NCBI RefSeq assembly: GCF_044704955.1
Contig: NC_091984.1
Span: 144,274,001 to 144,338,000 of the forward strand
From: Pristiophorus japonicus
Taxonomy: Eukaryota
Direction of reading: 5' to 3'
DNA length: 64,000 bases
In this document: positions 4,081-62,049 of the stretch, one piece after another
Numbering within the stretch: position 1 is the stretch's first letter
Layout: the number at the start of each line of letters is the position of its first letter
Notes under the pieces: model-generated
Database searches by the model: none
Told to the model about the DNA's origin: nothing
What the model saw: only the letters and a program-made list of their open reading frames with translations
Position numbers and translations under genes: made by a program

Positions 4081-4082
4081 AC

Positions 4083-5950
4083 TGGATTATACTCCACCTG
4101 CCAAATCTTTGCCCATTCACTTAGCTGGTCTATATCCCTTTACAGACTATTTGTGTCCTCCTCACAATTTGCTTTCCCACCCATCTTTGTATTATAGGGT
4201 GATTGTTATTCAATCGACTCTGATTCTTAGAAATCGACTGAAGACATACAATCACCCTTCCTGGCTGTATCTATTGTAGGTTCGTGGTCGTTGGTTCTGT
4301 GCCCTGTTGGTTCTTCTTCTGGCCATTCTCTGCATTGCTGTTCCCTCCGTTTACACCATGTCCTTCCGTCCATTCATCTGTTTGTTCTTTCGACCTGTGT
4401 GCATCTGTACACGTATCCTTCTACTTCTTCTGTGTGCTTCTTCTTCCGTCTGTTCCTGTCCTTCATCCATCTTCTGCAGAGCTGCTTCTAGCTCACATAT
4501 TTATATCCAGACTATGATTGATCTCCCGCCACTGCGGTTTCTGATAAAGTGTTTACATAGATATATTTTATTGTGGTCCCCTTGGTTGATTGACTGCAAT
4601 AATGGACTCATCTGTTTTCCCATTTGCACACTGAGTCTGCAAGGCTCAAGTTGATTTCTCATCTTAACACCTCGTCCCAAAAAATGTGCACCTAGTGTGG
4701 TTCCTTTGTTGTCCAGTATTTTTACAGACTTGCTGTCTCCAGTGAGCTTGTTTTTCCCACCCTGGTCAATCAAGTTCAGGGCCTCACGTAACAACTCCAT
4801 TCTTGTTATGCATGAAGTCAGTTTTGGTCCCTGACCAAGAATGCCCTTAATTGTCCAGCTTCATTCCAAAAGCTTGTATTAATCTTTAGCTCATGGTCTC
4901 CTTCTGTGCTTTTCTGAAGATTAGTAACCTTACACTCCCTCCTTTAATGTTTCGTAAATATAAAACTAGAGACATTACTTGTGGAGTTCTTCTTTTTTCA
5001 TGAGCTCTTTTTGGGTGTATTGCAGTCTCAGTCAAAAACTCCAGATTACTTTCTTTTCTTACATCAAAAAACAGTACTTTTTCCTGACAAACCAACACTT
5101 TTACAACAAAAATATTCGGCCTTGATCTGACTTCAGTTTTATATACAAACACTTTGGCTTTGGTTCATCTTAACAACCCTTCAAGATTCCCTTCCTTTGT
5201 ATTCTTTTTCAACTTACAGGATAAGATAAATAGTTACACCACTATAACCAACTGTACAATGGCTAGTGCATGAGACATGATTCAAACCCAGAGGAGAATC
5301 TGAATGTTGAATACCAAATCCCATTTTGGAGGGGCCATCACTTCCTCAATTTCCTCCCTTACTTTTTAATTTGTTTGGTGTAATGTGTAATCGTGATTGT
5401 TGGATATTACAATGTCCTTCCTTGTACCATCAGCAAACTTAGCTACATTAAACTCGGTCCCTTCATCTAAGTCATTAATGTAGATAGTAAATAGATGAGG
5501 CCCAGCACTGATCCATGCGGCACTCCACTAGTTACCGTTTCCAATGGGAAAATGACCCATTTATGCCAACTCCCTGTTTTCTGTGAGTTAGCCAATTCTC
5601 TATCCATGCTAAGATATTACCCCCAACCCCATGAACTTTTATCTTGTGCCTTTTATGTGGTACCTCATCGAATGCCTTCTGGAAATCCAAATACACCACA
5701 TCCACTGGTTCCCCTTTATCACCCTGCTCGGTACATCCTCAAAGAATTCCAGAAAATTTGTCAAACATGATTTCCCTTTCATAAAACCATGCTGACTCTG
5801 CTTGATTGAACTACGCTTTTCCAAATGTCCTGCTACTGCATCCTTAATAATGGACTCCAGCATTTTCCTAACCACAGATGTATAACTGGTCTATAGTTTC
5901 CTGCTTTCTGTCTGCCTCCTTTTTGAAATAGAGGCGTTACATTTGCTGTG
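4083..5950 (-). mobile_element. Older CR1 RT fragment (4083-4196 and ~5423-5950) interrupted by an unclassified ~1.2-kb insert (4197-5422)
   Basis: QSQHGFMKGKSCLTN at 5639-5875; the RT sequence after FADD resumes at ~4196 on the other side of the insert. Confidence 0.75.
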
Positions 5951-6012
5951 CGTACTTTGGAGAGAGCGTTAAAAGGAGCAGCGACATCCAGAATACCAGA
6001 TTTTGCCTCAAT

Positions 6013-6445
6013 TCAACAACAAAAACCTGTATTTATATAGCGACTTTAACGTAGTGAAACGTCCCAAGGCACTTCCCAGGAGTATTATGAGATACAAAAT
6101 TTGACACCGAGTCACATAAGAAGAAATTAGTGTCGGTGACCAAAGAGGTATATTTTAAGGATCGTCTTGAAGGTGGAAAGAGAGTTAGAGAGGCGGAGAG
6201 GTTTAGGGAGAGAGTTCCAGAGCTTGGGGTCTCGGTAACAGAAGGCACGGCCACCAATGGTTGAGCGATTATAATCAGGGATGCTCAGGAGGGCAGAATT
6301 AGAGGAGCATAGACATCTCGGGGGGTTGTGGGGCTGGAGGAGATTACAGTGATAGGGAGGGGCGAGATCATGGAGGGATTTGAAAACAAAGATGAGAATT
6401 TTAAAAATTGAGGCATTGCTGAACTGGAAGCTGATGTCAGTCTCT
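6013..6445 (-). mobile_element. L2-clade LINE 3' fragment (mirrored at ~59815-60240)
   Basis: FKILIFVFKSLHDLAPPY...GGRAF...LWNSLP in ORF 6127-6534 (element reads opposite to the degenerate tail) and a tail of the aaggcgctatataaat...(ttg)n type. Confidence 0.8.
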
Positions 6446-7574
6446 ACCTTCCCCCCTCTGAGCCATTCTCCCCACCCCCACCTCGAGCCGCTCCCCCGCC
6501 TCCCTCCCTCACTCCCGCCCTCCTCACACCACATCCCTCAGCCTCCCTCCCCCTGATCCCAACTCAGTCCCCACTCCCTCCCCACCTCCCTGCCCCCCTA
6601 CCTCACACGCCCCTCCTCTCCTCTCCCAACCTCTCTGCCCCTCCCGAGCCGGAGTAGGCCATTCTTCCCCTCGAGCCTGCTCCGCCATTCAATGAGATCA
6701 TGGCTGATCTTCTACCTCAACTCCACTTTCCTGCACTGTCCCCATATCCTTCAATTCCCTTAATATCCAAAAATCTATCGATCTCCGTCTTGAATATACT
6801 CAAAGACTAAGGGGTCAACTTTCCGCTTGAGTTGCTCCTTTTTTTTGGAGCAATTGGTTTGGAATGAAGTATCTGAGAAATTGCAATTCTCGGCATTTAA
6901 TTTGCTCCAGTTCCAGTGAGTTAGAACAGTTTCATTTTGGAACAGCTTTCTTTTTTCAAAAGGGGGCATGTGCGGCCACTTACGCCTGTTTTGAAAGTTT
7001 AGGCAGCGAAAACTTACTCCAAACTAACTTAGAATGGAGCAAGTGTAGATTTTTGTACACTCAGAAAAACCTTGTCTACACTTTAGAAATCAGGCGTAGG
7101 TTACAAATCAGGCTTAGAGAATGAGGGGGGGAGGGGAGGGTGGGAGGGGGGAAGTAATTCAATTCTACAAGCATTCAACAGTCTTACTGAGACAAATAAA
7201 TAGCCAGCCTGAATAAAAAATTATAAACAAAGCAAATACAAAATATTGAATATTCCTACCTGTGTGAAGTGGAGCAGCCTTCGAGTTGCTTCAGGCAGGC
7301 CTTCCTTCCATGTTGGAAACAGGGGCGGCCTCAGTGACTCAATGGCAGCCGAAGACACAGCAAGCAGCCTTCGAGTTGTGAGGGTAACTGAGGCTATTCG
7401 GCCACAGGATAGGGGAGGCAGCAGTGGCTGACGGCGGCCGAAGACACAGCAAGCAGCCTTCGAGCTGTGAGGGTAACTGAGGCTATTCGGCCAGGGGACA
7501 GGGTAGTCGTGCAAAGCACCGGGAGGGAGAGGCAGCCAGCTAGCCAGTTTGAAACTTAAATTTGTAATTGCAGA

Positions 7575-8770
7575 ATGGGTGCTGCATTGTCAACACCACG
7601 GATTATGAAATGGTTCGCCAGCAATTCACAGCATAGGAGAGAATTGTTTAGAGCTCACCGCACCAGGAACTTCATAGCCCGTAGGCTGATGGGCAGGAGA
7701 CCGTACCCACATCGGCAATATCGAGCCAGGCACTCGTACCTGGACATGAGCGAGGCTGATTGTGTTAAAAGGCTGCGTTTCCACAGAGAAGTTGTTGTTG
7801 AGATCTGTGATATACTGAGAGCAGATTTGCAGCCCAGAAGCAGAACACCAACTGCCTTGTCAGTTGAAGTGAAGAGAGCAGCTGCACTTGCCTTCTATGC
7901 CTCGGGATCATTTCAGGCTACAACTGGAGATGTGTGCACCATCTCTCAACGTGCAATACATGCCAGCGTTTAGCAGGTCACGGCTGCACTGTAAGCACAG
8001 AGGAATGACTTCATGAATTTCCTAATGACCACATGAGAGCTGTGAGGCTTCTTCAGGATTGCTGGCTTCCCAAAGTTACAGGGCTGCATTGATTGTACCC
8101 ACATCGCCTTGTGAGAACCTGTGGAGGATTCTGAGCAGTACAGGAATAGAAAAGGTTTCCATTCCATCAATGTACCGCTCGTGTGTGACGACAAGCAGCG
8201 CATCATGTCAGTCGATGCGAGATAACCTGACAGCACAGATGATGCCTTCATCCTACGCGACAGCATTATATCTGACATGTTTGGGCAGCAGCCAGAAGGG
8301 CAGAGCTGGCTACTGGGAGACAAAGTGTACGGCCTGGCCACCTGGCTCATGACGCCCCTACATGTGACAAGGACGGAAGCTGACCATCAATACAACATGG
8401 TGCACATTGCGACGTGCAGCATCATTGAGAGGACCATTGGCATATTGAAACAGCATTTCCGATGCCTGGACCATTCCGGAGACCACTTGCAATACTCTCC
8501 TCAGATTGTCAGTCACTTCACTGTTGTGTGCTGCATGCTCCATAACTGAGGCAGCAGGAGCTGGTAGTGGAACCAGAAGATCCACATGAGGGGCCAGTGC
8601 CTGATGATAGTAATTTGGAAGAGCAGGATGAGGATGATGACGATGATCAGGAAAGCATGCAAGTGCCTGATGCCGGAGCACGAGGTCGGAGGAGGGCCGT
8701 CCATCGTGCTCCTTTAACAATTGCTCGAGCCCTGACCCACCAGCTCATCCATGAACGCTTCAATTACTGA
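7575..8770 (+). pseudogene. Harbinger DDE transposase (HARBI1-like), disrupted
   Basis: Motifs ALAFYASGSFQ, GCIDCTHI, NRKGFHSIN, WLLGDKVY, IERTIGILK, CCMLHN and an acidic tail, spread over frames with stops. Confidence 0.93.
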
Positions 8771-9276
8771 TGCCTGAGGGCTCTGCGACAACTGTTGCCC
8801 ATGGACATGTTTATTCTTTGGAGTTGTTCCTATGTCGTGTTGTGTTAATGGAACATGATTCAGTTTTAATTAAAACATATTTTATTGAAAAGTTAACGTC
8901 ACTGTAATAAAATATCTGTTGTATCAAACTTTACTTTTTAATATTACTCTTAAGATCACTGAAAAACTTTAAGATCACTTATAAACTTGTAAAGTTACAA
9001 AACAATTTCAACGTAAAAAATCTTACATTCTTAAGATCACTTTAACATCAAGATCACTTTTTACGGGCAAAATTAAATAAGTTACAAAAAGTGCGAGCAT
9101 TTACACTATAAGATCACTTAAAAACCCGATGATCACTTATAAGTTGTAAAGTTACAAAAGTTACAAAACAATTTCAAGTGAAAAACACTGCTACAGCTAC
9201 ATCAAGAACAAGAACAAAAGCAGCAAAGAAAGGCTGTAACCATCTCTCATCCACATCTCAGTGAATGTTCACTTCT

Positions 9277-11784
9277 TCATGGGGGTGTCATTTGATTGGC
9301 GGGGCTGTGTGCCCTTATTGCAGCAGCTACCTCCATGAGAGCCTGTGCCGTCACTTGCATGCCCTCCCTGACGGCCTGTGCCATCGATTGCACTCCCTCG
9401 GACATTCCCTCCCAAAGTTCCCGTGTCATTACTGCTATTTCTCCCGTCAGGACCGTCACCTCTTCACCCACTGCACTGACGCTACCGATGAGTGATCGGG
9501 TAAGCTCATTGGTCTTCATACCCAATGCCACAACCTGAGCCGCATCTGTTGCACGCTGCATCTCAGGAGAGTGTGTCTCCAATCTCCTTCTCCTCTGCCT
9601 GGGCCTGCCTCGCGGCACCACTACACAGGAAGGCGTGGGCTGGGACGGTGGGACACTCTGTGTTCCACACGGCAGTACTAGAGAGAGAGGCGTGGGCTGG
9701 GACAGTGGGGCGCTCTGTGTTCCAGACGGCACCACTACACAGGGAGGCGAGGGCTGGGATGGTGGGACACTCTGTGTTCCAGACGGCAGTACTGGAGAGA
9801 GAGGCATGGGCTGGGATGGTGGGACGCTCTGTGTTCCAGACGGCAGTACTAGAGAGAGAGGCGTGGACTGGGACGGTGGGACGCTCTGTGTTCCAGACGG
9901 CAGTACTAGAGAGAGAGGTGCGGGCTGGGACGGTGAGGCACTCTGTGATCCAGACGGCAGTACTCGAGAGAGAGGCGTGGACTGGGACGGTGAGGCACTC
10001 TGTGATCCAGACATTAGTACTAGAGAAAGAGGCGTGGACTGGGATGGTGGGACACTCTGTGTTCCAGACGGCAGTACTAGAGAGAGGCGTGGACTGGGAC
10101 GGTGGGACACTCTGTGTTCCAGACATCAGTACTAGAGAAAGAGGCGCGGGCTGGGACAGTGGGACACTCTGTGTTCCAGACGGCAGTACTAGAGAGAGAG
10201 GCGTGGACTGGGACGGTGGGGCGCTCTGTGTTCCAGACGGCACCACTACACAGGGAGGCGCGGGCTTGGATGGTGGGACACTCTGTGTTCCAGACGGCAG
10301 TACTAGAGAGAGAGGCATGGGCTGGGACGGTGGGACGCTCTGTGTTCCAGACGGCAGTACTAGAGAGAGAGGCGTGGGTTGGGACGGTGGGACGCTCTGT
10401 GTTCCAGACGGCAGTACTAGAGAGAGAGGCGTGGATTGGGACGGTGGGACGCTCTGTGTTCCAGACGGCAGTACGAGAGAGAGAGGTGCGGGCTGGGACG
10501 GTGAGGCACTCTGTGATCCAGACGGCAGTACTAGAGAGAGAGGCACATGTTGGGACGGTGGGACACTCTGTGTTCCAGACGGCAGTACTAGAGAGAGAGG
10601 CGTGGACTGGGACTGTGGGACACTCTGTGATCCAGGCGGCAGTACTAGAGAGAGAGGCGCAGGCTGGGACGGTGAGGCGCTCAGTGTTACAGACAGCAGC
10701 ACTCGAGTGCGAGCCGTGGGCTGGGATGGTAGGTGAATGGGTGTAAACTGCTCCATGATATCACCAGCACCACTGGGACCCACAACGTCGGAATCAAAAC
10801 CATGGAAGTTGGAACCAGAACCTATGCGAGTGGGAGGCGCAGGCTCGGACTCTGGTGCACTGGCTGTAAACTGCTACATTACACCAGCAGCACCACTGGG
10901 ACCCGCAACATCGGAATCAAAACCATGGAAGGTGGAACCAGATCCTATGCAAGGGGTTGAAACTCAGATGCCCCTTAATGGGGGCTCATAGACATTCATT
11001 TGGAAGTTCTCCCCTGTAGACATTTCAGTCATCGCCGCCAGCATCCAGTCTGGATCGTCTGCATCTGGTTGTACTGGTTCTTGTTCTGTATCTTCAGGAT
11101 CCTCAGGGTTGGCATCATCATCATCATCATGTTCTGCAAAATATATCAGAACAGTCAAATGTCTAACAGCAATAGAGGGGGCAGCATGGGTGGCACGAGT
11201 ACTCTCACACATAGCAGGCCAGGCAGCAGGTTGATTTGAAGGGCCACGATGCATTTTCAGGACTTACCCTCTTCCTCGCGTGTGGGCCCAGCTTGTGCTG
11301 TACTGAATGCTTTTCTCCATGTACGACTCATCATGGCAGCTCCCCTCTGTTCCAAGGGTGTCAGTTGCTGCAGATTGAGCGTGCCTCCTCCTGTTCGAGT
11401 TGCTTCTCTTTTGTTGTGGGCCACTTTCTTCTGCAAAGAGTAAAATATAACTTATTACAGAGTGTGTCTTTCTACAGGGCGGGACATACAGATAGTCACA
11501 TTACAATTACGATTACATTAAAAAATGAAAATATTACTTACACTAACTACTTGACCAAGATCGTGCCATTTCTATTTACACTGGCTTCCAGATCTCATGG
11601 TATGCACCACTGCGCAGTAATCTTCTGCAACTTGGTTCCAGCGTTTCTTCATTTCTTTCGGTGGCACTTTTATGTGACCTCTGTTGCTGGTATCGAGCTC
11701 CTGCCATCTCTGCTCAATGACGTTAACTAATATCTCCACTTCCTCATGCAAGAAATTCTTTGTTCTTGGTGGATGTTGTTCCAT
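9277..11784 (-). pseudogene. Harbinger Myb/SANT-like (NAIF1/MSANTD-like) accessory gene, 3 exons: 11784-11542, 11430-11268, 11133-9277
   Basis: Exon 1 RTKNFLHEEVEILV...W.QVA...QCK*KWHDL; GTAAGT donors and ttgcag acceptors with consistent phases 0 and 1; exon 2 KKVAHNKREATRTGGG; exon 3 acidic + P/S-rich repeat + coiled C-terminus. In-frame stops present. Confidence 0.85.
9630..10730. repeat. 60-bp coding minisatellite (~18 units; [19 protein letters not shown]-like)
   Basis: Unit like ggctgggacggtgggacactctgtgttccagacggcagtactagagagagaggcgtg, repeated inside exon 3. Confidence 0.95.
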
Positions 11785-13094
11785 TGCTGTATTGAATTGA
11801 AACTCTTACTTTTCAAAACACAGTCCTTATTTTGCATGCACCTATGTCGCACCTGTTCTGGAAGTTTAGCGGTGAAAAGCAGCACTCACTGATTTCAGGA
11901 GGTGGTTTCTTCAACAGTGCTGCTAAAAACACTCTTTCAGACAGCAAAATTCAATCCCAAGCCTTTCCAGAGGTCCACGAGACAAATCAGCACATTTCTT
12001 CAAGTTCCTTTAAAATGGCTCCAACACGCACGCGCAGGGCTGTCGGCAGGACGTTCTCTCATTTGACTTAGCCCCGCCCCCCTGCACTTGCAGAATTGGC
12101 GCGACTCTGTGGCTCCGCCCCCTGCTGATGTCTGCGCGCCGCGCCGAGCTGCGAGGGACCTGCAGGGAGCCCGAGAATTGCAAGGTACATTTTTGTCGCA
12201 CTTTTAGGCACGAAAAACAGGCGTCCATGTCAGGGCTGCGCTGTTCGAGGCACGGCCTGAAACTTGACCCCTGAGACTCCACAGCCCTCTGGGGTAGAGA
12301 ATTACAGAGATTCACCACCCTCTGAGTGAAGAGGTTTCTCCTCATCTCAGTCCGAAATGGCCGACCTCTTATTCTGAGACTGTGACCCCTGGTTCTAGAC
12401 TCCCCAGCCAGAGGAAACATCCTCCCTGCATTTACCCTGCCAAGCCCTGTCAGAATTGTGTATGTTTCAATGGGATGCCCTCTCATTCTTCTAAACTCTC
12501 AAGAGTATCGGCCTTGGAACTTGTGGAACCAAGGCGGGTAGATGGAATTCAGATACAGATGAGCCGTGATCTGATTGAATGGGGGAACAGGCTCGAGGGG
12601 CTGAATGGCCTCCTCCTGTTCATTATGTCCAGCAGCAGCTGTGAACCTCCCCGCAACCTCATCTTGACTTTTATCAGTCGCATCAGAGCCTTGATTCCCT
12701 CACCAGGAGGCTGGTGTTTCCAGATCAATGTCCAGCTGATCGATGTCATGAGTCAGACTCAGTGAGTGCTGTCAGTGGATGGAAAGGCTGCTCTAACTGC
12801 AGCCTTGTTCTAATGCATTTGGGGAGGGGCAACAAGGCAAGGGAATACACAATAAATGGGAGGGTACTGAGAGGGGTGGAGGAACGGAGGGACCTTTGAG
12901 TGCATGTCCACAGATCCCTGAAGGTAGCAGGCCAGGTCGATAAGGTGGTTAAAAAGGCATACGGAATACTTGCCTTTATTAGCCGAGGCATAGAATACAA
13001 GAGCAGGGAGGTTATGCTTGAACTGTATAAATCACTATTTAGGCTACAGCGAGAGGACTGCGTGCAGTTCTGGTCATCACAGGGCTATGGACCC

Positions 13095-16000
13095 ATAGAA
13101 ACATAGAAACATAGAAAATAGGTGCAGAAGTAAGCCATTCGGCTCTTCGAGCCTGCACCATCATTCAATAAGATCATGGCTGATCATTCCCTCAGTACAC
13201 CTTTCCTGCTTTCTCTCCATACCCCTTGATCCCTTTAGCCGAAAGGGCCATATCTAACTCCTTCTTGAATATATCCAATGAACTGGCATCAACAACTCTC
13301 TGCGGGAGGGAATTCCACAGGTTAACAACTCTCTGAGTGAAGAAGTTTCTCCTCATCTCAGTCCTAAATGGCCTACCCCTTATCCTCAGACTGTGTCCCC
13401 TGGTTCTGGACTTCCCCATCATCGGGTTCATTCTTTCCGCATCTAACCTGTCCAGTCCCATCAGAATCTTATAGGTTTCTATGAGATACCCTCTCATCCT
13501 TCTAAACTCCAGTTTATAAATGCCCAGTTGATCCAGTCTCTCCCCATAAGTCAGTCTTGCCACCCCGTGAATCAGCCTGGTGAACCTTCGCTGCACTCCC
13601 TCAATAGCAAGAACTGCCTTCCTCAGATTAGGAGACCCAAACAGAACACAATGTTCCAGGTGAGGCGTCACATAGGCCCTGTATAACTGCAGTAAGACCT
13701 CCCTGCTCCTATACACAAATCCCCAACATACCATTTGCCTTCTTCACCGACTGCTGAACCTGCATGCCAACTTTCAATGACTGATGAAGCATGACACCCA
13801 GGTCTCGCTGCACCTCGCCCTTTCCTAATCTGCCGCCATTCAGATAATATTCTGCCTTCGTGTTTTTGCCCCCGAAGTGGATAACCTCACATTTATCCAC
13901 ATTATACTGCATCTGCCATGCATTTGCCCACTCACCTACCTGTCCAAATCACCCTGCAGCCTCTTAGCATCGTCCTCACAGCCCACACCACCACCCAGTT
14001 TAGTTTCATCTGCAAACTTGGAGATATTACACTCAATTCCTTCATCTAAATCATTGATGTATATTGTAAAGAGCTGGGGTCCCAGCACTGAGCCCTGCGG
14101 CACCCCACTAGTCACTGCCTGCCATTTTGAAAAGGACGCGTATATCCCGACTCTCTGCTTCCTGTCTGCCAACCAGTTCTCTCTCCACGTCAGTATATTA
14201 TCCCAATACCATGTGCTTTGCTATTGCACACCAATCTCTTGTGTGGGACCTTGGCAAAAGCCTTTTGAAAGTCCAAATACACCATATCCACTGGTTCTCC
14301 CTTGTCCACTCTACTAGTTACATCCTCAAAAAATTCCAGAAGATTTGTCAAGCATGATTTCCCTTTCATAAATCCATGCTGACTTGGACCGATCCTGTCA
14401 CTGCTTTCCAAATGCGCTGCTATTTCATCTTTAATAATTGATTCCAACATTTTCCCCACTACTGATGTCAGGCTAACCGGTCTATAATTACCCATTTTCT
14501 CTCTCCCTGCATTTTTAAACAGTGGTGTTACATTAGCTACCCTCCAGTCCATAGGAACTGATCCAGAGTCAATAGACTGTTGGAAAATGATCATCAATGC
14601 ATCCACTATTTCTAGGGCCACATCTTTAATACTCTGAGATGCAGACTATCAGGCCCCGGGGATTTATCGGCCTTCAATCCTATCAATTTCCCTAACACAA
14701 TTTCCCACTTTATAAGGATATCCTTCAGTTCCTCCTTCTCACTAGATCGTCGGTTCCCTAGTATTTCCGGAAGGTTATTTGTGTCTTCCTTCGTGAAAAC
14801 AGAACCAAAGTATTTGTTTAACTGGTCCGCCATTTCTTTGTTCCCCATTATAAATTCACCTGAATCTGACCGCAAGGGACTTACGTTTGTTTTCACTAAT
14901 CTTTTTCTCTTCACATATCTATAGAAGCTTTTCCAGTCAGTTTTTATTTTCCCAGCAAGCTTCCTCTCATATTCTATTTTCCCCCTCCTAATTAAACCCT
15001 TTGTCCTCCTCTGCCGTATTGCAGAATTCTCCCAGCCCTCAGGTTTGCTGTCTTTTCTGGCCTATTTATATGCCTCTTCCTTGCATTTAACACTATCCTT
15101 AATTTCCCTTGTTCGCCACGGTTGAGCCGCCTTCCCCGTTTTATTTTTACTCCAGACAGGGATGTACAATTGTTGAAGTTCACCCCTGTGATCTTTAAAT
15201 GTTTCCCATTGCCTATCCACCGTCCACCCTTTAAGTATCATTTGCCAGTCTTTTCTAGCCAATTCACATCTCATACCATTGAAGTTACCTTTCCCCAAGT
15301 TCACGAACCTAGTCTCTGAATTAACTGTGTCACTCTCCATCTTAATAAAGAATTCTACCATATTATGGTCACTCTTCCCCAGGGGCCTCGCACAACAAGA
15401 TTGTTAATTCGCCCTTTCTCATTACACATCACCCAGCCTAGGATGGCCAGCACTCTAGTTGGTTCTCGATATATTGGTCTAGAAAACCATCCCTAATACA
15501 TTCCAGGACATCCTCCTCCACCGCATTGCTACCAGTTTGGTGAGCCCAGTCAATATGTAGATTGAAGTTGTCCATGATAACTGCTGTACCTTTATTGCAC
15601 GCATCCCTAATTTCTTGTTTGATGCTGTCCCCATCCTCATTAGTACTGTTTGGTGGTCTGTGCACAACTCCCACTAACGTTTTCTGCCCTTTGGTATTCC
15701 GTATCTCCACCCATACAAATTCCACATCATCCAAGCTAATGTCCTTCCTTAATATTGTATTAATTTCCTCTTTAACCAGCAACACCACCCACCTCCTTTT
15801 CCTTTCTGTCTATCCTTCCTAAATGTTGAATATCCCTGGATGTTGAGTTTCCAGCCTTGGTCACCCTGGAGTCATGTCTCCGTGATGCCAGTTACATCAT
15901 ATCCGTTAACTGCTATCTGCGCAATTAATTCTTCCACCTTATTCCGAATACTCCTCGCATTGAGGCACAGAGTCTTCAGGCTTCTCTTTTTAACGCCCTT

Positions 16001-17306: not shown

Positions 17307-17694
17307 CAACCCAGAGCTGGAAAGTGGAATAAGGCTGAGTAGATCTTTGTTGGCCGGCGTGGACACAATGGGCCGAAATGGTCTCCTTCAGTGCTGTAAA
17401 TTTCTGTGATTCTATGATCGTGCTGGTGGTGTTGACCACTTCAAAAGTCGCAGCATACATTTTATTGAAGCTATTTCCATCCCCGGTTTCCCCATTGCCA
17501 ATAATTGGATCAATCGATGCTGTAGCGCCCCCTTGTGGTATATCTATATGGGCTCCACCCAAATCCCTGTTTTCAACCCTTGAACCCACATTGCCTACGC
17601 TAGCTGGAGCCCCGCTCCTTAATCACAGCATCTCACAGCACAGAGAGAGGCCATTCAGCCCATCAAACCTGTGCTGGCTCTTTGAAAGAGCTGT

Positions 17695-17848
17695 GGACTA
17701 CTATGTCCAGGACTAAAGATCCAGAGACACGAGTTCAAATTCCACCACGGCAGCTGGGGAATTTAAATTCATTTAATTAAATAAATCTGGAATAAAAAGC
17801 TAGTGTCAGTGATGGTGACCATGAAAATGCCGGATTGTCGCAAAAAAC
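17695..17848 (+). mobile_element. tRNA-derived SINE fragment
   Basis: B-box-like gagttcaaattcc followed by an AT-rich body typical of shark SINEs; family not assigned. Confidence 0.55.
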
Positions 17849-17849
17849 G

Positions 17850-21300: not shown

Positions 21301-21419
21301 TAAAAATAAAATAAAGCAAATAACTGCCTGGCCGACATCATTCAGGCCATAATTTCTGGATTTATTCACCCGACTGAGGGCGAACACTCTTGATGGGCCA
21401 TTAATGGGCCTTAAGTTTT

Positions 21420-22313: not shown

Positions 22314-22334
22314 ATTCGAATTCAGCTCTACATC

Positions 22335-23985: not shown

Positions 23986-23992
23986 GGATACC

Positions 23993-25100: not shown

Positions 25101-25104
25101 ATTC

Positions 25105-37003: not shown

Positions 37004-37009
37004 AAACAC

Positions 37010-50428: not shown

Positions 50429-52229
50429 ATGGAAAAACGTCCACCAAGAACAAAGACTTTCTTGCATGAGGAAGTGGAGATGTTCATAAATGTCATTGAG
50501 CAGAGATGGCAGGAGCTAGATACCAGCAACAGAGGTCGCATAAAAGTGCCACCGAAAGAAATGAAGAAACGTTGGAACCAAGTTGCAAAATAGATCTGGA
50601 AGCCAATGTAAAAAGAAATGGCACGACCTTGGTCAAGTAGTTAGTGGGAATAATTTTTTCATTTTTTAATGGAATCGGAATTGTGATGTGACTATTTATA
50701 TGTCCCTCCCTGCAGAAAGACGCACTCTGTAATAAGTTATATTTTACTCTTTGCAGAAGAAAGTGGCCCACAACAAAAGGGAAGCAACTCGAACAGGAGG
50801 AGGCACGCTCAATCTGCAGCAACTGACACCCTTGGAACAGAGGGTAGCTGCCATGATGAGTCGTACATGGAGAACAACATTCAGTACAGCACAAGCTGGA
50901 CCCACACGTGAGGAAGAGGGTAAGTCCTGAAAATGCATCGTGGCCCTTGAAAATCAACCTGCTGCCTGGCCTGCTATGTGTGAGAGTACTCATGCCCCCC
51001 ATCCTGCCCCCTCCCTTGCTGTTAAACATTTGACTGTTCTGATATATTTTTCAGAACATGATGATGATGATGATGTCAACCCTGAGGATCCTGAAGATAC
51101 AGAACAAGAACCAGTACAACCAGATGCGGACGATCCAGACTGGACGCTGGCGGCGATGACTGAAATGTCTACAGTGGAGACCTTCCAAATTAATGTTTAT
51201 GAGCCCCTATTAAGGGGTATCTGAGTTTCAACCCCTTGCATCGGATCTGGTTCCACCTTCCGTGGTTTTGATTCCGACGTTGCGGGTCCCAGTGGTGCTG
51301 GTGATATCATGAAGCAGTTTACAGCCAGTGCACCAGAGTCCGAGCCTGCGCCTCTCACTCGCATAGGTTCTGGTTCCACCTTCCATGGTTTTGATTCCGA
51401 CGTTGTAGGTCCCAATGGTGCTCGTGATATCATGGAGCAGTTTACATTCATTCACCCACCATCCCAGCCCATGGCTCGCACTCAAGTGTTGCTGTCTGGA
51501 ACACCGAGCGCCTCACCATCCCAGCCCGCGCCTCTCTCTCTAATACTGCCGTCTGGAACACAGAGCGTCCCACCGGCCCAACCTGCAACTCTCTCTCTCG
51601 TACTGCCGTCTGGAACACAGAGCGTCCCACCATCCCAGCCCACGCCTCTCTCTCTAGTACTGCCGTCTGGAACACAGAGCGTCCCACCGTCCCAGCCCAC
51701 GCCTCTCTCTCTAGTACTGCCGTCTGGAACACAGAGTGTCCCACCGTCCCAGCCCGCGCCTCTTTCTCTAGTACTGCCGTCTGGAAAACCGCGCGTCTCA
51801 CCGTCCCAGCCTGCGCCTCCCTGTGTAGTGGTGGCGTTTGGAACACCGAGCATCCCACCGTCCCTGTCCGCGCCTCCCAGTGTAGTGGTGCTGCGAGGCA
51901 GGCCCAGGCAGAGGAGAAGGAGATTGGAGACACGCTCTCCTGAGATGCAGCGTGCAACAGATGCGGATCAGGTTGTGGCATTGGGTATGAAGACCAATGA
52001 GCTTACCCGATCACTCATCGGTAGCGTCAGTGCAGTGGGTGAAGAGGTGACGGTCCTGATGGGAGAAATAGCAGTAATGACACGGGAACTTAGGGAGGGA
52101 ATGTCCGAGGGAGTGCAATTGATGGCACAGGCCGTCAGGGAGGGCATGCAAGTTACGGCACAGGCCCTCATGGAGGTAGCTGCTGCAATAAGGGCACACA
52201 GCCCCGCCAATCAAATGACACCCCCATGA
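50429..52229 (+). pseudogene. Harbinger Myb/SANT-like gene, right copy (~6-7 repeat units)
   Basis: Mirror of 9277-11784; deletion in exon 1, damaged first donor, TGA after LRGI at 51222-51224. Confidence 0.85.
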
Positions 52230-52726
52230 AGAAGTGAACATTCACTGAGATGTGGATGAGAGATGGTTACAGCCGTTCTTTGCTGCTTTTGTTCTTGTTC
52301 TTGATGTAGCTGTAGCAGTGTTTTTCACTTGAAATTGTTTTGTAACTTTTGTATCTTTTCAACTTATAAGTGATCTTAGGGTTTTTAAGTGATCTTATAG
52401 TGTAAATGCTCGCACTTTTTGTAACTTATTTAAGTTTGCAACTAAAAAATGATTTTGAAGTTAAAGTGATCTTAAGATTATAAGATTTTTCACATTGAAA
52501 TTGTCTTGTAACTTTACAAGTTTATAAGTGATCTTAAAGATCTTCAAGAGTAATATTAAAAAGTAAAGTTTGATACAACAAATATTTTATTACAGTGACG
52601 TTAACTTTTCAATAAAATATGTTTTCATTAAAACTGAATCATGTTCCATTAACACAACACAACATAGGAACAACTCCAAAGAATAAACATGTCCATGTGC
52701 AACAGTTGTCGCAGAGCCCTCAGGCA

Positions 52727-53932
52727 TCAGTAATTGAAGCGTTCACGGATGAGCTGGTGGCGCAGGGCTCGAGCAATTGTTAAAGGAGCACGATGGACGG
52801 CCCTCCTCCGACCTCGTGCTCCGGCATCAGGCACTTGCATGCTTTCCTGATCGTCGTCATCATCCTCATCCTGCTCTTCCAAATTACTATCATCAGGCAC
52901 TGGCCCCTCATGTGCATCTTCTGGTTCCACTACCAGCTCCTGCTGCCTCATGATGGCTAAGTTATGGAGCATGCAGCACACAACAGTGAAGTGACCGACA
53001 ATCTGAGGAGAGTATTGCAAGTGGCCTCCGGAATGGTCCAGGCTGTTTCAATATGCCAATGGTCCTCTCAATGATGCTGCGCGTCGCAATGTGCACCATG
53101 TTGTATTGACGGTCAGCTTCCATCCGTGTCACGTGTAGGGGCGTCATGAGTCAAGTGGCCAGGCCGTACACTTTGTCTCCCAGTAGCCAGCTCTGCCCTT
53201 CTGGTTGCTGCTCAAACATGTCAGATATAATGCTGTCGCGTCGGATGAAGGCATCATCTGTGCTGTCAGGGTATCTCGCATCGACTGACATGATGCGCTG
53301 CTTGTCGTCACACATGAGCTGCACATTGATGGAATGGAAACCTTTTCTATTCCTGTACTGCTCAGAATCCTCCACAGGTTCTCGCAAGGCGATGTGGGTA
53401 CAATCAATGCAGCCCTGTACCTTTGGGAAGCCAGCAATCCTGAAGAAGCCTCACAGCCCTCATGGATCGCTTGTGCGGTCATTGGGAAATTGATGAAGTC
53501 ATTCTTCTGCACATACAGTGCAGCCGTGACCTGGTAAATGCTGGCATGAATTGCACATTGAGAGGTGGCGCACACATTTCCAGTTGTAGCCTGAAACGAT
53601 CCCGAGGCATAGAAGGCAAGTGCAGCTGCTCCCTTCACTTCAACAGACAAGGCAGTTGGTGTTCTGCTTCTCGGCTGCAAATCTGCTCTCAGAATATCAC
53701 AGATCTCAACAACAACTTCTCTGTGGAAACGTAGCCTTTTAACACAATCAGCCTCGCTCATGTCCAGGTACCAGCGCCTGGCTCGATATTGCCGATGTGG
53801 GTAAGATCTCCTGCCCATCAGCCTACGGGCTATGATGTTCCTGTTGCGGTGAGCTCTAATCAATTCTCTCCTATGCTGTGAATTGCTGGTGAACCATTGC
53901 ATAATCCGTGGTGTTGACAATGCAGCACCCAT
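52727..53932 (-). pseudogene. Harbinger DDE transposase, right copy, frameshifted
   Basis: Same motifs as the left copy (NRKGFHSIN, WLLGDKVY, IERTIGILK, CCMLHN). Confidence 0.93.
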
Positions 53933-54022
53933 TCTGCAATTACAAATTTAAGTTTCAAACTGGCTAGCTGGCTGCCTCTCCCTCCCGGTGCTTTGCACGC
54001 CTACCCTGTCCCCTGGCCGAAT

Positions 54023-57000
54023 CAACCTGCAGATACTGGAATGGTCCGACAGGGGCAGGAGCCTCAGTTGGGGCATTACCGTGATGGGTCCAGAATTATT
54101 TTTCTGGCACACCACACAGCAGCCTACTACCAGCTGGGCGTGTTTTTTAAATCTCCAACCCCACCAGCTTTTCTGGAACCATGCTGTCATCTGTTGTGAG
54201 GCCAAGTGTCCCCACGAGTGGATCTGTTGGGCTAAAAAAGGCATTAGCGCTTGTGGCGCGACTGGCTTGTCGGTAACTCTTTGCCTCCAGACACCATCTT
54301 CACATAGCTTAATTCATGCCTCAATCCATGTCCATTTTTCCTCTCGGGAGCGCTCGCCTTGCATTGTTTGAAGGTCTCGTGTCAGAGTCCTGAGTGCTTT
54401 CAATCTGCACATCTGTGTTGGTTCTTCTGGGGGAACGCCCTATGAGGCAGCATCTTTAGCTGCCTGGTCGGCTAGGGCATTTCCCTGTGCTTCCGTGGTA
54501 TTTTCCTTGGTATGGGCCTTACACTTCAGGATGGACACTTACTGAGGTAATTGTATGGCCTCTAGTAAGTCTCGGACTTCTTTTCCATTTCGAATAGGTG
54601 TACCAGCAGCAGTGAGGAATCCCCTTTTCCGCCATTATGGACCAAAGTTGTGAGCGATTCCAAAAGCATAACGTGAATCTGTGTAGACATTAGCTGTCTG
54701 TCCTTCTGCTAACTCGGCCTGTTGTGCTGACATTCCTGAGGATAAACGTCCTTTTGCCACTACCTCATGTAAGGTTGTAACTGCCCATCCTGCTTTTCCG
54801 GTACCATTGTCAACAAAGGAGGAACCATCTGTAAACAGGATGAGGTCTGGGTTGTGCAGAGGCTCCTCTGCTGCTAAGGCTGCTTCTTCTGTTTCTTTTA
54901 AAATCTCCACGCAGTCATGCTCGTCACATTCCCCCCCCTCTCTTGTTCCCTCGATTCTGACATCGGGAGCATAGTTGTGGGATTAACCGGGCTGGCCCGG
55001 ACGATATGGAGATTAGGAGCTTACAAAACTGCAGTCCAGCGGGTCCATCTAGCTGCTGTCACCTGAGACATTCTATTCATAGACAGCAAAGCATGTATGG
55101 TGTGGGGACACTTGACAATCAGGTTTTGGTCGAGGACTAGACCCGCAATGATCATTACCGCTCGATATGTAGCTTCCATGGCCCTTAGGCAACTTCCCCA
55201 TCCGAGGGCTACCGCATCCATTTTTGCCGAATAATAGCCAATAGGTCTTTGCCGATCCCCATGTGCTTGTTTCAGTATAGCTGTCATATATCCTTCTTTG
55301 TCATGGACAAACAGGGTAATTGGCTTATCACTGTCGGGGATTCCCAGAGCCGTTGCCGAACACAAAGCCTTTTTCAAACTCAGGAAGGCCTCTTGCTGTT
55401 CCCTAGTGAGGGTGATGGCTTCTTTAGAAACACGTTTCCCCCTTAAGATATCATTCAATGGCTGAGCAAGCTGTGTGAAGGAGTCAATGCAATTTCTGTT
55501 AAAGTTACACAATCCCAAAAAAGACCTTAGTTCCTGAATAGTGGTGTTTTTTTTAGCAGCCCGAATGGCTGCAGTTCTATCCTGGGTAAGTTCTCTCTTT
55601 CCTTGTGAAATCTTTTGTCCCAGGTATACAACCTCTTCTTGGGATATTTGTGCTTTGTCGATGCTGGCTTTATGTCCTTTCAGCCAAAGGTGGTCCAGCA
55701 AAGCTCGTAAATCTTGTTCATGCTGTTCTTCTGTGTTTTAAGCTAGCAGGATATCGTCTACATATTGGATGACTGTGGATAACAGGGGAGATAATTCTCG
55801 CAAATGGCTTTGTAAAGCCATGTGGAATACCGTAGGGCTGTTGTGGAAACCTTGCGATAACCGGGTCCAAGTATACTGTTGTCCTTGGACCGTGAAAGCA
55901 AACCACTGTCGAACCTCCGGTGCTAGAGGCACCGACCAAAATCCGTTGGCCATATCTATAACCGAGAAATATTTATGTTCCGGTTTGAGGGCATTAAAAA
56001 TGGTGGAGGGATTTGCGACCAAGGAGCTTTTTGATCAATGCACTGGTTAGCTTTCCTATAATCGACAGTCAAACGCCAAGTCTCATTAGATTTCCGTACC
56101 GGCCACACGGGGCTATTGGAGGAGCTATGCGTTTTAACAAGCACCCCTTGTTTCTCCAATTGCTGCATAACAGGTAAGATTCCCGTGATGGCAGTTGGAC
56201 TGATGGGATACTGTTTAGTGCATGGAGGCTTGGTCCCGGTAAATGACGCAGGCTCCGTCTGGAGTAGGCCACAATCGTTCTTATCTTTAGCTCATATCGG
56301 GTGTTCCTTGAATTCTTCTTTCTTCAAAGTTCTAATTGACCATGTAACCCGACCATCCTCGAAATGCAATGATGAATCTACTTGGATTAAAACGTCCATT
56401 CCCAAAAGGGGTTGATCTACTGGGCCTATCCAGACTGGCGTGGTTAGTTCATGTGGACACAGCCCGATATAAGTACTGGTGTTGTCCTTTTAATTTCCAT
56501 TTTATGGCCCCCAACTCCATAGGCTGTACATGCCCTACCATCCAACGGCAAAAAGTCTCCATATCGTAGGGGTAAGCATGTTAATTCCGCCCCTGTGTCT
56601 AAAAGACAGTCCACATCCTTATCGCCCACCCTCACAGTTATATATAGCCCATCTCCCCTTTGTTGTATTAGTGCAAGGAGGTGGACCAGGGTGGACTCTA
56701 ATCATTTTTTGCTATCCCAAGTAACTCCTTCTGTTGTTGTATTGTCAGTCGCTTAAATGCTTCTATGAGGTCGTTATCTTGTGACAAGCCTAGTTTGTTG
56801 GCTGAATGTATACCTGGCTGCGTCCTCTTCCCCGGCCGCGACCTTGCTGTTTTGCCCTGCACGTCTTGGCCCAATGACCTTCTTTCCCACAATAATGACA
56901 TTTTCCGGGTAATTTTCCTAATAACTGTTTATCGGAATCCTGGGATTTCCATCCCATAGTCTGTACAGCTCGGACTTTAGCTCCCATATCCCGATCGAAT

Positions 57001-58906
57001 TGGTTACATCGATCCACCAATGCTGCAAAGGTAGTTCCTCTACCTTCCCAGTCCGGTTACTCTACCTTAAGCATTTTGGACAGTTCTGGCTTTTGACCTG
57101 CCACGAAAGCTGCTTTCAGGGGTCCAAATACTTGTTCATCCATTTCCTCATCCATATTATTCATACCCGAATGTTCTAGCCACGTGCATCTAAACCGCTC
57201 ATCATACTCCAGGACCTCCTCTGTTCCTTTCTGTTGGCAGGCTGCAATTTTTCCCCAGTCTGTCTTAGCTGGACTGAAGGCTTGCAGCCAGTGTTTAATC
57301 GCCTCCCACCCTGTGTCTAATTCTTGCTCATCCTGCCCCAAAGCTTCTTCTATCTTGTGGTGCAATTTTCTTCCCTGTTTTTTTGGCACCATTCTGGTCA
57401 AAATTTGAACTCCGCCCCAGGGATGAAGTTGATATATATTTCTTAAGCGGTCCAATTGGTCCCACGTTTTTACTCCCTCTTTCTTTGGATTGGGCAATTC
57501 CTTGGACCATTTATCAATTTTCTCTGGGTCTGCCGGATCATGAACTAAATATTCTGCATACCCCCTTTTCCTCGTTTTTTTGGTTCCGCCCTCATCCGCA
57601 GTCTCTTCTGATTTGACTACAACTCATCTTTTTTTAAATGGGGCAAAGCGCACCCCTAATTCTTCATCCTCCGACACTGTATCGTCGGAGGATTCAGAAT
57701 CCGTATCAATTCCTCGGTCGTGTCTTCAGGTTTGCTCTTTTAATTTATCCAAACATGGGTACCCTGGGAATTGACCAATGCATTTTCCTTTTCCCATTAC
57801 TGTCTCTTGACCTAATGATTTTTTCCATTCTTTAATTTCACCTTTAAGATCTTTAACTTCCGCTTCCGATTTTTCAAGTTCATGTCTTGTCTGTCGCAGC
57901 TGTGCACAAACAGCTTGCAATTGGTCCTTTGTACTGGTCAGTTCTTGATCATGTTGGGAACGCATTATAATTTCATTCCGCTTTCGGATCTGTCCCATAA
58001 TGGCTAGGGACCATCTAGTTCACTCTTTATTTTTCATACGGGTCGTTATTCCCCAGACCCTTTTAATCTCGTCCAAGGACCATTGTCCTTTGGAGGTACC
58101 GTATTTTTCTTCGATCTTAAAACAGGTTTTAGATAAGTTGAATTGTTGCTCTATGTATTCTTTCAACTGTTGGAGGATTTCATCTATCGAAAACTCAGAT
58201 GGTGCCTGCCCGCCTTTAACAGTTGTAGGCAATTCTTCGCTCTTATCTCCTGCTGCCATAATACTGATTTCTTTACTGGGGTCTCGAGTCGTAGGCTTTC
58301 CAGCCGATCAGTGGGTCGGTGATTAATTAACTAACACAACGCCGAAGTTAGACGTCTATGGTACCTCGAGCCGACTACCAACTGGAGGGTTCGCAAACAG
58401 GAGGTTTTCGGAATCGCGTAGAAGGAGAGGCAAATTTAGACTTTTGACCGGGGACTTTTATAAAGTGGAGTCCTTACCTCAGTATGTAGGTCCGATGTCC
58501 AAATTCAGTTTCTTCCCTCAGCGATCTTGTTCGTGACGCCAAAATTGTTTGATTTCTTAATTCTCAATGAAATACGAACTCCGGTTCTGGTTTTAATGTA
58601 ACTTTATTCTGGCAGCAGCAACAAGCTTCTGGCTTTAAGCCAGGCCTTTGTCCTTCTGAGACCACATGGCCAAAATGGCTGTACTTATACCTGGTTCAAT
58701 TTACAGAAAAGAACTCACCTCCTTTGACCTTATTGGCTCAATTGATAGTCTTTTAACCTTTAATTGGCTTGCTACCCAAGGTGCTAAAATGTCAAGTTGA
58801 TTGATGACTTAATGCAACATGCTGAGTTGCACGTAACAGCTTTGACTTGGGGTCTGTGAATTTTCACAAAACTGCAGCCAGGCTGCAGAGCTTGAATTCT
58901 CTATGA
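54023..58906 (-). mobile_element. Endogenous retrovirus: 5' LTR (~58546-58906), PBS, gag-pro-pol, truncated at the start of the integrase core
   Basis: LTR with TATAAG and AATAAA ending ...AACA; PBS TGGCGTCACGAACAAGAT (58524-58541); gag from 58259 with CHYCGKEGHWAKTC; protease LLDTGA; RT ...ANGFW...QGFHNSP...YVDD; tether; RNaseH FTDGSS...TDSRYAF; IN HHCC then GPFQYLQVD. Confidence 0.93.
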
Positions 58907-60299
58907 GTTACCCTCGCAGCTCGAAGGCTGTTTGCTGTGTCTTCGGCTGTCATTAAGTCACTGAGGCCGCCCCTGTCTCCAACATGGAAGGCTGCTGCTG
59001 CTTCACACAGGTGGGAATATTCAATATTTTGTATTTGCTTTGTTTATAATTTTTTATTCGGGCTGGCTCTTTATTTGTATAAGTAATACTGTTGAATGCT
59101 TGTAGAATTGAATTACTTCCCCCCTCCCCGCCCTCATTCCCTATGCCTGATTTGTAACCTGCGCCTGATTTCTAAAGTGTAGACAAGGTTTTTCTGAGCG
59201 TATAAAAATCTACATTTGCTCCATTCTAAGTTAGTTTGGAGTAAGTTTTCGCTGCCTAAACTTTCAAAACAGGCGTAAGTGACCACAAATGCCCCCTTTT
59301 GGAAAAAAACATCTGTTCCAAAATGAAACTGTTCCAACTCACTGGAACTGGAGCAAATTAAATGCTGAGAATTGCAATTTCTAAGATACTCCATTCTAAA
59401 CCAGTTGCTCCAAAAAAAAGGAGCAACTCGAGCGGAAAGTTGACTCCTCAGTCTTTGAGTATATTCAAGACGGAGATCGATAGATTTTTGGATATTAAGG
59501 GAATCGAGGAATATGGGGATAGTGCAGGAAAGTGGAGTTGAGGTAGAAGATCAGCCATGATCTCACTGAATGGCGGAGCAGGCTCGAGGGACCAAATGGC
59601 CTACACCGGCTCGGGAGGGGCAGAGGGGATGGGAGGGGGAAGGAGGGGCATGTGAGATAGGGGGGCAGGGAGGTGGGGAGGAAGTGGGGGCTGAGTTGGG
59701 ATCGGGGGAGGGAGGCTGAGGGATATGGTGTGAGGAGGGCGGGAGTGATGTAGGGAGGCGGGGGAGTGGCTCGAGGTGGGGGTGAGGAGAATGGCTCGGT
59801 GGGGCGAGGGTAGAGACTGACATCGGCTTCCAGTTCAGCAACGCCTCAATTTTAAAAATTCTCATCCTTGTTTTCAAATCCCTCCATGACCTCGCCCCTC
59901 CCTATCTCTGTAATCTCCTCCAGCCCCACAATTCCCCGAGATGTCTATCCTCCTCCAATTCTGCCCTCCTGAGCATCCCTGATTATAATTGCTCAACCAT
60001 TGGTGGCCGTGCCTTCTGTTGCCGAGATCCCAAGCTTTGGAACTCTCTCCCTAAACCTCTCCGCCTCTCTAACTCTCTTTTCTCCTTCAAGACACTCCTT
60101 AAAACATACCTCTTTGGTCACCTACACTAATTTCTTCTTATGTGACTCGGTGTCAAATTTTGTATCTCATAATACTCCTGGGAAGTGCCTTGGGACGTTT
60201 CACTACGTTAAAGGCGCTATATAAATACACGTTGTTGTTGAATTAGGCAAAATCTGGTATTCTGGATGTCGCCGCTCCTTTTAACACCCTCTCCAAAGC

Positions 60300-60840
60300 A
60301 CGCACAGCAAATGTAACGCCCCTATTTACAAAAGGAGGCAGACAGAAAGCAGGAAACGATAGACCAGTTAGCCTAACATCTGTCGTTGGGAAAATGCTGG
60401 AGTCCATTATTAAGGAATCAGGAGCAGGACATTTGGAAAAGCATAATTCAATCAAGCAGAGTCAGCACGGTTTTATGAAAGGGAAATCATGTTTGACAAA
60501 TTTGCTGTAATTCTTTGAGGATGTAACGAGCAGGGTGGATAAAGGGGAACCATTGGATGTGGTGTATTTGGATTTCCAGAAGGCATTCGATATGGTGCCA
60601 TATAAAAGGCACAAGATAAAAGTTCATGGGGTTGGGGGTAATATATTAGCTAGAATAGAGAATTGTCTAACTAACAGAAAACAGGGAGTTGGAATAAATG
60701 GGACATTTTCCCGTTGGCAAACGTTAACTCGTGGAGTGCTGCATGGATCGGTGCTGGGGCCTCATCTATTTACAATCTACATTAATGACTTAGATGATGA
60801 TGCCGAGTGTAATGTAGCCAAGTTTGCTGATGATACAAAG
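60300..60840 (+). mobile_element. CR1 RT fragment (mirror of 5423-5950)
   Basis: YLDFQKAFD...GSVLGP...FADD in ORF 60535-60978. Confidence 0.88.
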
Positions 60841-62049
60841 AAGGACGTTGAGCTATCCAACAAACACTATCACACATTACACCAAACAAATGAAAAAGTA
60901 AGGGAGGAAATTAAGGAAGGGATGGCCCCTCCAAAATGTGATTTGGGATTCAATATTCAGATTCTCCCCTGGGTTTGAATTGTGTCTCACGCATTAGCCA
61001 TTGTATAGTTGGTGTAACTATTTATCTTATCCTGTAAGTTGAAAAAGAATACAAAGGAAGGGAATCTTTAAGGGTTGTTAAGATGAACCAAAGCCAAAGT
61101 GTTTGTATATAAAACTGAAGTCAGATCAAGGCCGCATATTTTTGTTATAAAAGTGTTGGTTTGTCGGGGAAAAGTACTGTTTTTTGATGTAAAAAATAAT
61201 ATTTGACTGAGACTGCAATACACCCAAAAAGAGCTCATGAAAAAAGAAGAATTCCACAAGTAATGTTTCTAGTTTTATATGTACGAAACATTAAAGGAGG
61301 GAGTGTAAGATTACGAATCTTCAGAAAGCACAGAAGGAGACGATGAACTAAAGATTAATACAAGCTTTTGGAATGAAGCTGGATAATTAAGGACATTCTT
61401 GGTCAGGAACCAAAACTGGCTTCATGCATAACAAGAATGGAGTTGTTACGTGAGGCCCTGAAATTGATTGACCAGGGTGGGGAAAACAAGCTCATTGGAG
61501 ACATCAAACCTGTAAAAAGACTGGACAACAAAGGAACCACACTAGGTGCACATTTTTTGAGACGAGGTGTTAAGATGAGAAATCAACTTAAGCCTTGCAG
61601 ACTCAGTGTGCAACTGGGAAAACAGATGTGTCCATTATTGCAGTCAATCACCCAAGGGGACCACAATCAAATGTATCTATGTAAACACTTTATCAGAAAC
61701 CGCAGTGGCAGGATTAAGAATTAGTGTTGCTAGCCTCGAATGGTTAATCGGCATCCAGGAGTTCATTAACCCAACTCTCCGTTATCAGATGTGAATTATC
61801 CCCACACTGAAACACCCACAGTGACACAGACCCACACAGAGACACCCATCTGCACCCACCCCATCCCCCAACACCCCAACCCACCTCCCCGACCCACACA
61901 CCCATACCCCTCCCCCACCCACACACACACACCCTCCCACACCCACTAACATGCACTCGCACACGCACTTAAGCGCACTCTCACGGAAACACCCACAGAG
62001 ACACACACACTAATATACACCTATTAAACATCCTTCTCCTCCCTTTCAG

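Follow-up and report, generated by a model that had tools for sequence, protein, structure and literature searches.

A diverged palindrome in the genome of the sawshark Pristiophorus japonicus is most easily understood as the meeting of two antibody light-chain gene clusters. It spans positions 4524 to 61713 of a 64,000-nucleotide stretch of contig NC_091984.1 (positions 144,274,001 to 144,338,000, here termed the window; the contig is referred to below as C8). With a probability that we put at about 0.8, its two arms, L (4524-23986, forward) and R (43236-61713, reverse), are the shared 3' flanks of two immunoglobulin (Ig) kappa-type clusters lying tail to tail, a later break having stranded a constant (C) exon without variable (V) or joining (J) segments. 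The arms themselves are neutral, repeat-filled DNA, and the locus is best classed under birth-and-death segmental duplication of Ig loci.

In the course of events that we envisage, two flank lineages about 5-8% apart would have been placed tail to tail in an array where arm sequence comes after most C exons. The resulting pair is present four times on C8, two of its copies still ending in a C exon on the reverse strand, C(-). In one lineage, arm R would then have been cut within a dispersed repeat and its cut end joined, through an overlap of 2 bp, to an intron at a point 337 bp upstream of another C. This later break was likely of deletion type, with a donor intron from another unit, and the broken block is now found twice in the assembly, at 99% identity.

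The kappa-type array on C8

The window lies inside a 5.3-Mb Ig kappa-type array (C8 143.36-148.82 Mb) whose matches, lying in either orientation, number 75 for C, 53 for V and 41 for J. Counts for C and V are those falling on this interval among the 150 matches listed per protein search of the 5.9-Gb genome, with split matches merged and an outlier at 159.5 Mb and unplaced contigs set aside, and the J count derives from a pattern search that gave 55 matches, 41 of them within the array. The C exons are divided between the strands (39 forward, 36 reverse) at a median spacing of 67 kb, and their 74 neighbouring pairs comprise 22 tail to tail, 23 head to head and 29 in tandem; the palindrome itself is thus ordinary, being one of the 22 tail-to-tail neighbours. 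The earlier suggestion that light-chain clusters are duplicated, broken or scattered holds for duplication and breakage but not for scattering, the clusters being packed in one array.

A complete V-J-C unit adjoins the window on the left (V at -12431, J at -10528 and C at -2789 in window coordinates). Its V is followed by a heptamer, 12 bp and a nonamer, and its J is preceded by a nonamer (three mismatches to the consensus), 23 bp and a heptamer; a 12-bp spacer at V and a 23-bp spacer at J make up the kappa arrangement. The C exon downstream of the palindrome, at 62050, had been predicted to be C-kappa, and its closest named chains are indeed kappa by database label: a horn shark kappa secretory chain matches it at 78% identity, horn and nurse shark chains do so at 77-78%, and the kappa label is carried by 21 of 30 database matches. 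Three near-identical matches (97-99%, sawshark-labelled) bear the automatic name 'lambda-1-like', and a search of solved structures gave no help with isotype.

The array also contains higher-order duplications of several hundred kilobases (143.5/145.3/147.45 Mb and 143.9-144.35/146.3-146.74 Mb), in which V/C spacing is repeated two to three times, and a further contig, C1231, duplicates part of the array content. Elsewhere on C8 there is a second light-chain-like group of V and C (177.7-179.5 Mb, 43-53% identity) and, at 159.5 Mb, an outlying kappa-type V, J and C with the V on the strand opposite J and C.

Arm sequence as the 3' flank of C exons

Most C exons of the array have arm sequence as their 3' flank. 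Among the scored matches to 4524-5400, 26 of 40 lie in the array or on C1231, the remainder being dispersed repeat copies, while for 21945-22800 all 40 scored matches are confined to C8 143.5-148.9 Mb and four small contigs. The whole block of L, spacer and R occurs four times on C8, the window included. The copy at 146.61-146.74 Mb is 99.4-99.5% identical up to window position 51,833 and 97.8% identical thereafter; those at 147.22-147.32 and 145.10-145.20 Mb are 92-97% identical by block. In the latter two, arm R runs 3.2 kb further into a C(-) exon, and the inverted match spans both C exons and part of the intron (80 and 74 kb). No V or J is listed within 30 kb of the C(-) exon in these unbroken copies. 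A related tail-to-tail pair with a shorter right arm is found on C1231, and a separate, unrelated pair at 143.84-143.89 Mb.

These observations recast the original prediction, which had taken the palindrome as one segmental inverted duplication, rather than independent insertions, with 4524 and 61713 as its outer ends. Segmental duplication stands. A single event does not, given a block present four times on C8 and arm sequence after most array C exons; nor do the proposed ends, since the inverted match extends through both C exons in two copies. The view of L and R as each other's closest copies finds no clear support, being disfavoured in one block (approximately unbiased (AU) test, p 0.045) and left undecided by another. 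The genome search for further arm copies that had been proposed was carried out, and arm copies were found to follow most C exons of the array.

Geometry and divergence of the arms

Seven inverted self-BLAST blocks, all with E = 0, bear out collinear arms at the predicted limits: 4524-7389/61713-58906 (91.1% identity), 7485-10051/54022-51455 (92.7%), 10312-13528/51876-48649 (89.7%), 13674-15431/48657-46905 (89.4%), 18102-18919/46908-46061 (84.7%), 18926-19548/45805-45181 (92.7%) and 21941-23885/45182-43236 (94.7%). Global alignment of L (19,463 bp) with R (18,478 bp) gave 93.2% identity over 13,296 aligned columns, ranging from 87.8 to 96.5% per kilobase, in agreement with a divergence of 5-10% estimated by eye; the three differences in 60 positions counted at 23341-23400 proved exact. 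Old insertions are shared between the arms, as had been claimed, but only about 70% of each arm can be aligned, the other 30% being arm-specific sequence. At 13.3 kb and 93.2%, with block copies at 92-99.5%, the arm pair fits the usual definition of a segmental duplication (more than 1 kb at more than 90% identity). A third copy of arm sequence, in direct orientation, begins at 63599 in the window and is 88.6% identical to 5416-5816 by self-BLAST.

The arms have evolved as distinct lineages. In two quartet comparisons over eight blocks (totals of 11,145 and 11,187 sites), 299 and 313 sites grouped L with L and R with R, 24 and 21 grouped the arms within a block, and 10 and 21 were crossed. Because the quartets group L with L and R with R, arm-wide gene conversion, for which peaks of identity had been proposed as a sign, is rejected. 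In trees that span the blocks, the L copies make up one clade and the R copies another, both with full support.

The junction between arm R and a J-C intron

The C exon begins at 62050, 337 bp after the last base of arm R, close to the predicted distance of about 340 bp. Alignment to both parents places the cut in R after ...GGCAGGA and the join at an intron starting GATTAAG, with a GA overlap of 2 bp (61712-61713, forward). The cut falls inside a dispersed repeat: matches reach about 4229 in four of the six copies fetched, and 4473 and 4485 in the other two. A flank left of arm L (4086-4523, forward) is present in unbroken R copies and lost from the R of the window, the R copies at 147.305 and 145.176 Mb matching window positions 7391 down to 4086. 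The junction 25-mer occurs exactly twice in the genome at no more than one mismatch, in the window and in a twin block 99% alike. The predicted breakpoint in a J-C intron is therefore real as a junction, but it is a secondary break and not the original end of the palindrome.

A search for the reciprocal join returned five matches, each with two mismatches and none on C8, against two for the control, which is chance level. The lack of a reciprocal join on C8 favours a deletion-type join without proving it, and by the same token a balanced inversion is disfavoured. Following the orphan exon is a 3.9-kb stretch common to the complete unit at 148.78 Mb, and a unit like that one is therefore the likely donor of the orphan C.

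Three other origins of the junction were considered and rejected. No recombination signal was found at 61713 or 4524, the nearest heptamer being 104 bp away, and a RAG-made junction thus lacks a signal on either side. A transposon-end junction is refuted by dispersed copies that extend beyond 4524, the cut lying inside the element. A small in-place inversion of an ancestral C(-) fails on two counts: it predicts a different continuation of the DNA from the one observed beyond the 62050 exon, and that exon is not placed with the C(-) of unbroken copies. The heptamer in question, CACAGTG at 61817-61823 in the J-C intron, is found in most aligned copies and is reminiscent of the mammalian kappa intron signal, but its nonamer, with three mismatches, is not a good one.

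Orphan C exons and V-J facing a downstream C

The 62050 exon retains an intact acceptor and frame, with AATAAA at 62902-62907, and has no V or J in the window and none on its own strand within 30 kb. It has many counterparts. When V and J were sought up to 30 kb upstream on the same strand, 40 of the 75 C exons had both, 4 had V only, 1 had J only and 30 had neither; 12 of these 30 orphans lie head to head with a V at 22-24 kb. Across C8 143.49-147.94 Mb, a motif of orphan C(-), 22-24 kb, V-J(+), 13 kb and C(+) is repeated twelve times. Four V(+) segments without a matched J stand at 144.18, 145.04, 146.56 and 147.16 Mb, each with a C(-) 16-17 kb further on, and the one at 144.18 Mb is split by a long interspersed nuclear element (LINE).

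All 75 C exons were fetched and scored for integrity. Broken exons make up 10 of 30 orphans and 6 of 45 linked exons (Fisher p 0.048), the copies not being independent; the raw script had given 9 of 45, three rows trimmed at their first two bases having been re-scored as intact. Distinct changes give a ratio of about 0.82 in head-to-head orphans vs 0.55 in linked exons. Selection keeping the orphan exons was considered and rejected, the head-to-head class showing 10 synonymous and 19 non-synonymous changes (p 0.37 against neutrality); the same test gave p 0.059 for all orphans and p 0.012 for all linked exons, a weak contrast. Decay of orphan C exons is suggested by these figures, and the 62050 exon is predicted to be a young pseudogene. 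One sequencing run contains a contig with J letters joined at 62050; its C contig carries 14 differences and so represents another copy, and the observation concerns the family and not the exon of the window.

The converse arrangement is also present. By coordinates, 11 units on C8 (143.58-148.01 Mb) have 3' flank DNA between V and C, and the three that were mapped run in the order V, intron to -9350, LINE, 3' flank, truncated intron and C, with J intact in two and no J match in one. Their flank-to-C part is 91% identical to the DNA between the orphan C of the window and the next C. We infer that the first C was lost from a unit of the form V-J-C-flank-C, leaving V-J to face what was once a spare C; the 11 units appear to use a downstream C.

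Alternative explanations

That R was made from L in a single inverted duplication whose outer breakpoint fell in the J-C intron is in our estimate improbable. Collinear arms with shared insertions and the reality of the intron junction are both to be expected of such an event, and a tree of 4524-5410 (32 rows, six dispersed copies among them) places L (5), R (4) and the adjacent third copy (2) in one supported clade, with R pairing weakly with the third copy. The unbroken copies, however, pass through both C exons and make 61713 a later break, and arm sequence comes after most C exons. A tree of 21985-23460 (32 rows, with 20 of the further copies listed) moreover resolves L and R as separate clades in a polytomy, the constraint of holding L+R as one clade (9 rows vs 23) being marginally rejected (AU p 0.045). 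A weaker form is conceivable, in which C and part of the intron were taken along in an early fold-back duplication. The least probable, and already largely refuted, is a functional palindrome, made or maintained by arm conversion or by RAG cutting at cryptic signals. A single tract of about 50 bp with shared alleles (9350-9399), the CACAGTG heptamer at 61817 and RAG activity in shark germ cells (PMC2193156) give it some footing; set against them are the separate evolution of the arms in the quartets, the distance of that heptamer (104 bp) from a junction without a signal of its own, its three-mismatch nonamer, and arms that carry transposon remains alone.

Somewhat less probable than the single duplication, in our judgement, is an error of assembly (mis-joined haplotypes or repeat collapse) behind the junction or the entire palindrome. 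A twin block 99.7-100% alike over most of 90 kb and a contig, C1231, that repeats array content speak for it, and no bridging contig is among those listed; the twin block may be a false duplication. Taken in 2-kb pieces, the twin is mostly 99.7-100% identical as far as 48 kb; identity is 98.9-99.5% between 52 and 68 kb, 97% between 68 and 74 kb and 94-96% beyond. The two junction copies differ by 0.5-1% around the junction itself. There is no N in 264 kb, and several motifs are present three times on C8. Contigs of the window type flank the junction on its two sides at matching depth (13.8/13.6 and 25.1/25.6), and at 61713 the one contig that continues carries letters other than those of R. 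Since the arms are 7% apart and the pair recurs in copies 3-5% diverged, far beyond haplotype level, the palindrome is not a haplotype artefact.

Several results nonetheless weigh against the account of two tail-to-tail flanks and a later break. In the 7520-9600 block the signal separating L from R vanishes (8 vs 12 vs 6 sites), and, given the supported clade at 4524-5410, R may have arisen locally from an L-like ancestor. The exon tree leaves the donor unit of the orphan C unplaced, and a reciprocal join carrying indels would escape the search that was made, which leaves deletion and inversion unsettled. As to decay, pairwise pN/pS is equal in orphans (0.42) and linked exons (0.43), and the contrast in broken exons reaches p 0.048 only after the three linked rows were re-scored. 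The two junction copies, 99% alike, could be two haplotypes on one contig; among the short-read contigs listed for one sample none bridges 61713, and positions 61720-61751 are uncovered at 97% identity in both DNA runs of one sample, although such holes prove nothing.

Other features of the window

To the left of the arms, positions 1-4085 (reverse) hold a LINE, presumably CR1-like, with matches to RVT_1, an endonuclease and a GDSL-like ORF1 (first open reading frame). It lies in the 3' flank of the cluster left of the window and is missing from the copy at C8:145.11 Mb, and the flank pieces on its two sides (-1134 to -151 and 4086 onward) are contiguous in other copies. The arms contain transposon remains alone: fragments of LINE reverse transcriptase and endonuclease, together with a DDE_Tnp_4 transposase piece.

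Arm L, the 3' flank of the upstream V-J-C(+) cluster, includes old transposon pieces, among them a broken Harbinger-type transposase (8226-8546, forward; DDE_Tnp_4, E 1.4e-18) that is mirrored in arm R. The candidate gene-conversion tract (9350-9399, forward) accounts for six of the 24 within-block quartet sites and is also shared by the neighbouring third copies. Two stretches of L are without counterpart in R, one of 2.7 kb that is part of a LINE (15432-18105) and one of 2.4 kb (19549-21943). Arm R, the flank of the second, opposite cluster, whose own C exon is lost here, carries in turn a decayed long terminal repeat (LTR) retroelement of about 4.9 kb (54037-58905, reverse; RT_RNaseH and integrase zinc-finger matches) with no L counterpart. 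This element, delimited at 54025-58852, has a second copy about 90 kb downstream (window-relative 143370-148210, 92% identity).

At both arm ends a 33-bp minisatellite stands beside other repeat DNA. The spacer between them (23987-43235, 19.2 kb) is mostly continued L-lineage flank and repeats: 27045-32827 matches other units of the array, 38000-39400 has eight copies at 95% identity or more on C8 and C1231, and 42100-43200 is a dispersed repeat with four copies in the array. Within a 1.4-kb repeat that has many dispersed copies at about 80%, a self-inverted element (38611-38964) has arms of about 140 bp. Further minisatellites lie at 9631-10730 (57 bp), 34563-35367 (25 bp) and 41730-42031 (28 bp), the 57-bp array numbering 19 units in L and 7 in R.

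Beyond the junction, the J-C intron remnant (61714-62049, forward), which was aligned with four other C-upstream regions, keeps its AG acceptor intact and contains a CA-rich tract that has expanded. It leads to the intact orphan kappa-type C exon (62050-62378, forward; C1-set, E 1.4e-24) and its 3' flank (62379-64000, forward), in which the third copy of arm sequence begins and which leads on to a second, frameshifted orphan C 13.9 kb away.

Comparison with known systems

Shark clusters are described as having one V, J and C each, with joining within a cluster, and nurse shark is estimated to have about 60 kappa genes (PMC5192425); IgM clusters are placed 120 to more than 200 kb apart (PMC5192425); NS4 genes and germline joining are reported in shark (PMC2193156); and a 2025 paper calls the genomic distribution of miniclusters not well known (PMC12227049). 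Inversion between clusters was demonstrated in zebrafish and thought absent in sharks (PMC3014032), and a census of V genes leaves fish light-chain types unseparated (PMC13320880). By titles and the beginnings of abstracts, no literature was found on how a shark kappa array is built up internally by duplication; subscription papers and supplements may cover it.

The value of the locus is that it documents, base by base, the multiplication and death of shark antibody miniclusters. The array departs from the textbook picture of a single V, a single J and a single C in far-apart clusters, and what most merits following up is at the array level: the 40% of C exons that are orphans, the V-J facing a downstream C, and the dense two-way packing. 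Copy-specific variants make the long-held rule of rearrangement only within a cluster testable. It is conceivable, though unlikely, that kappa clusters are not closed cassettes: in so dense and two-way an array, spare C exons would arise by duplication, deletions would re-couple V-J to the next spare C (a layout seen in 11 units), and neighbouring clusters would lie close enough for V-J joining or J-C splicing between them. If this were true, sharks would have a receptor-editing route thought to be absent from them.

Large inverted duplications are familiar from other genomes. The human IGK locus consists of a proximal and a distal inverted copy, and the palindromes of the primate Y chromosome, whose arms are kept more than 99.9% identical by conversion, resemble the present one in their two long inverted arms round a spacer; unlike them, the arms here are 93% identical and diverge independently. 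With mammalian IG loci (PMC12288031) the array shares nested large duplications, inverted copies, stepwise identity and the birth and death of segments, but the mammalian duplications copy V arrays, whereas in the sawshark the copied segments are entire V-J-C units and orphan C exons. Zebrafish light-chain multi-clusters (PMC3014032) are likewise closely linked, of mixed orientation and on one chromosome; their V segments are often inverted relative to their own J, in contrast to the sawshark array, where V and J are co-oriented wherever both were matched, and inter-cluster joining has been shown in zebrafish. There is also a close likeness to the NS4/type III kappa miniclusters of elasmobranchs (PMC5192425, PMC2193156, PMC12227049), with their split V and J, one C per intact unit and tens of copies. 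From these the present array differs in its two-way arrangement, its median C spacing of 67 kb, its 30 of 75 C exons without V or J and its 11 flank-interrupted units.

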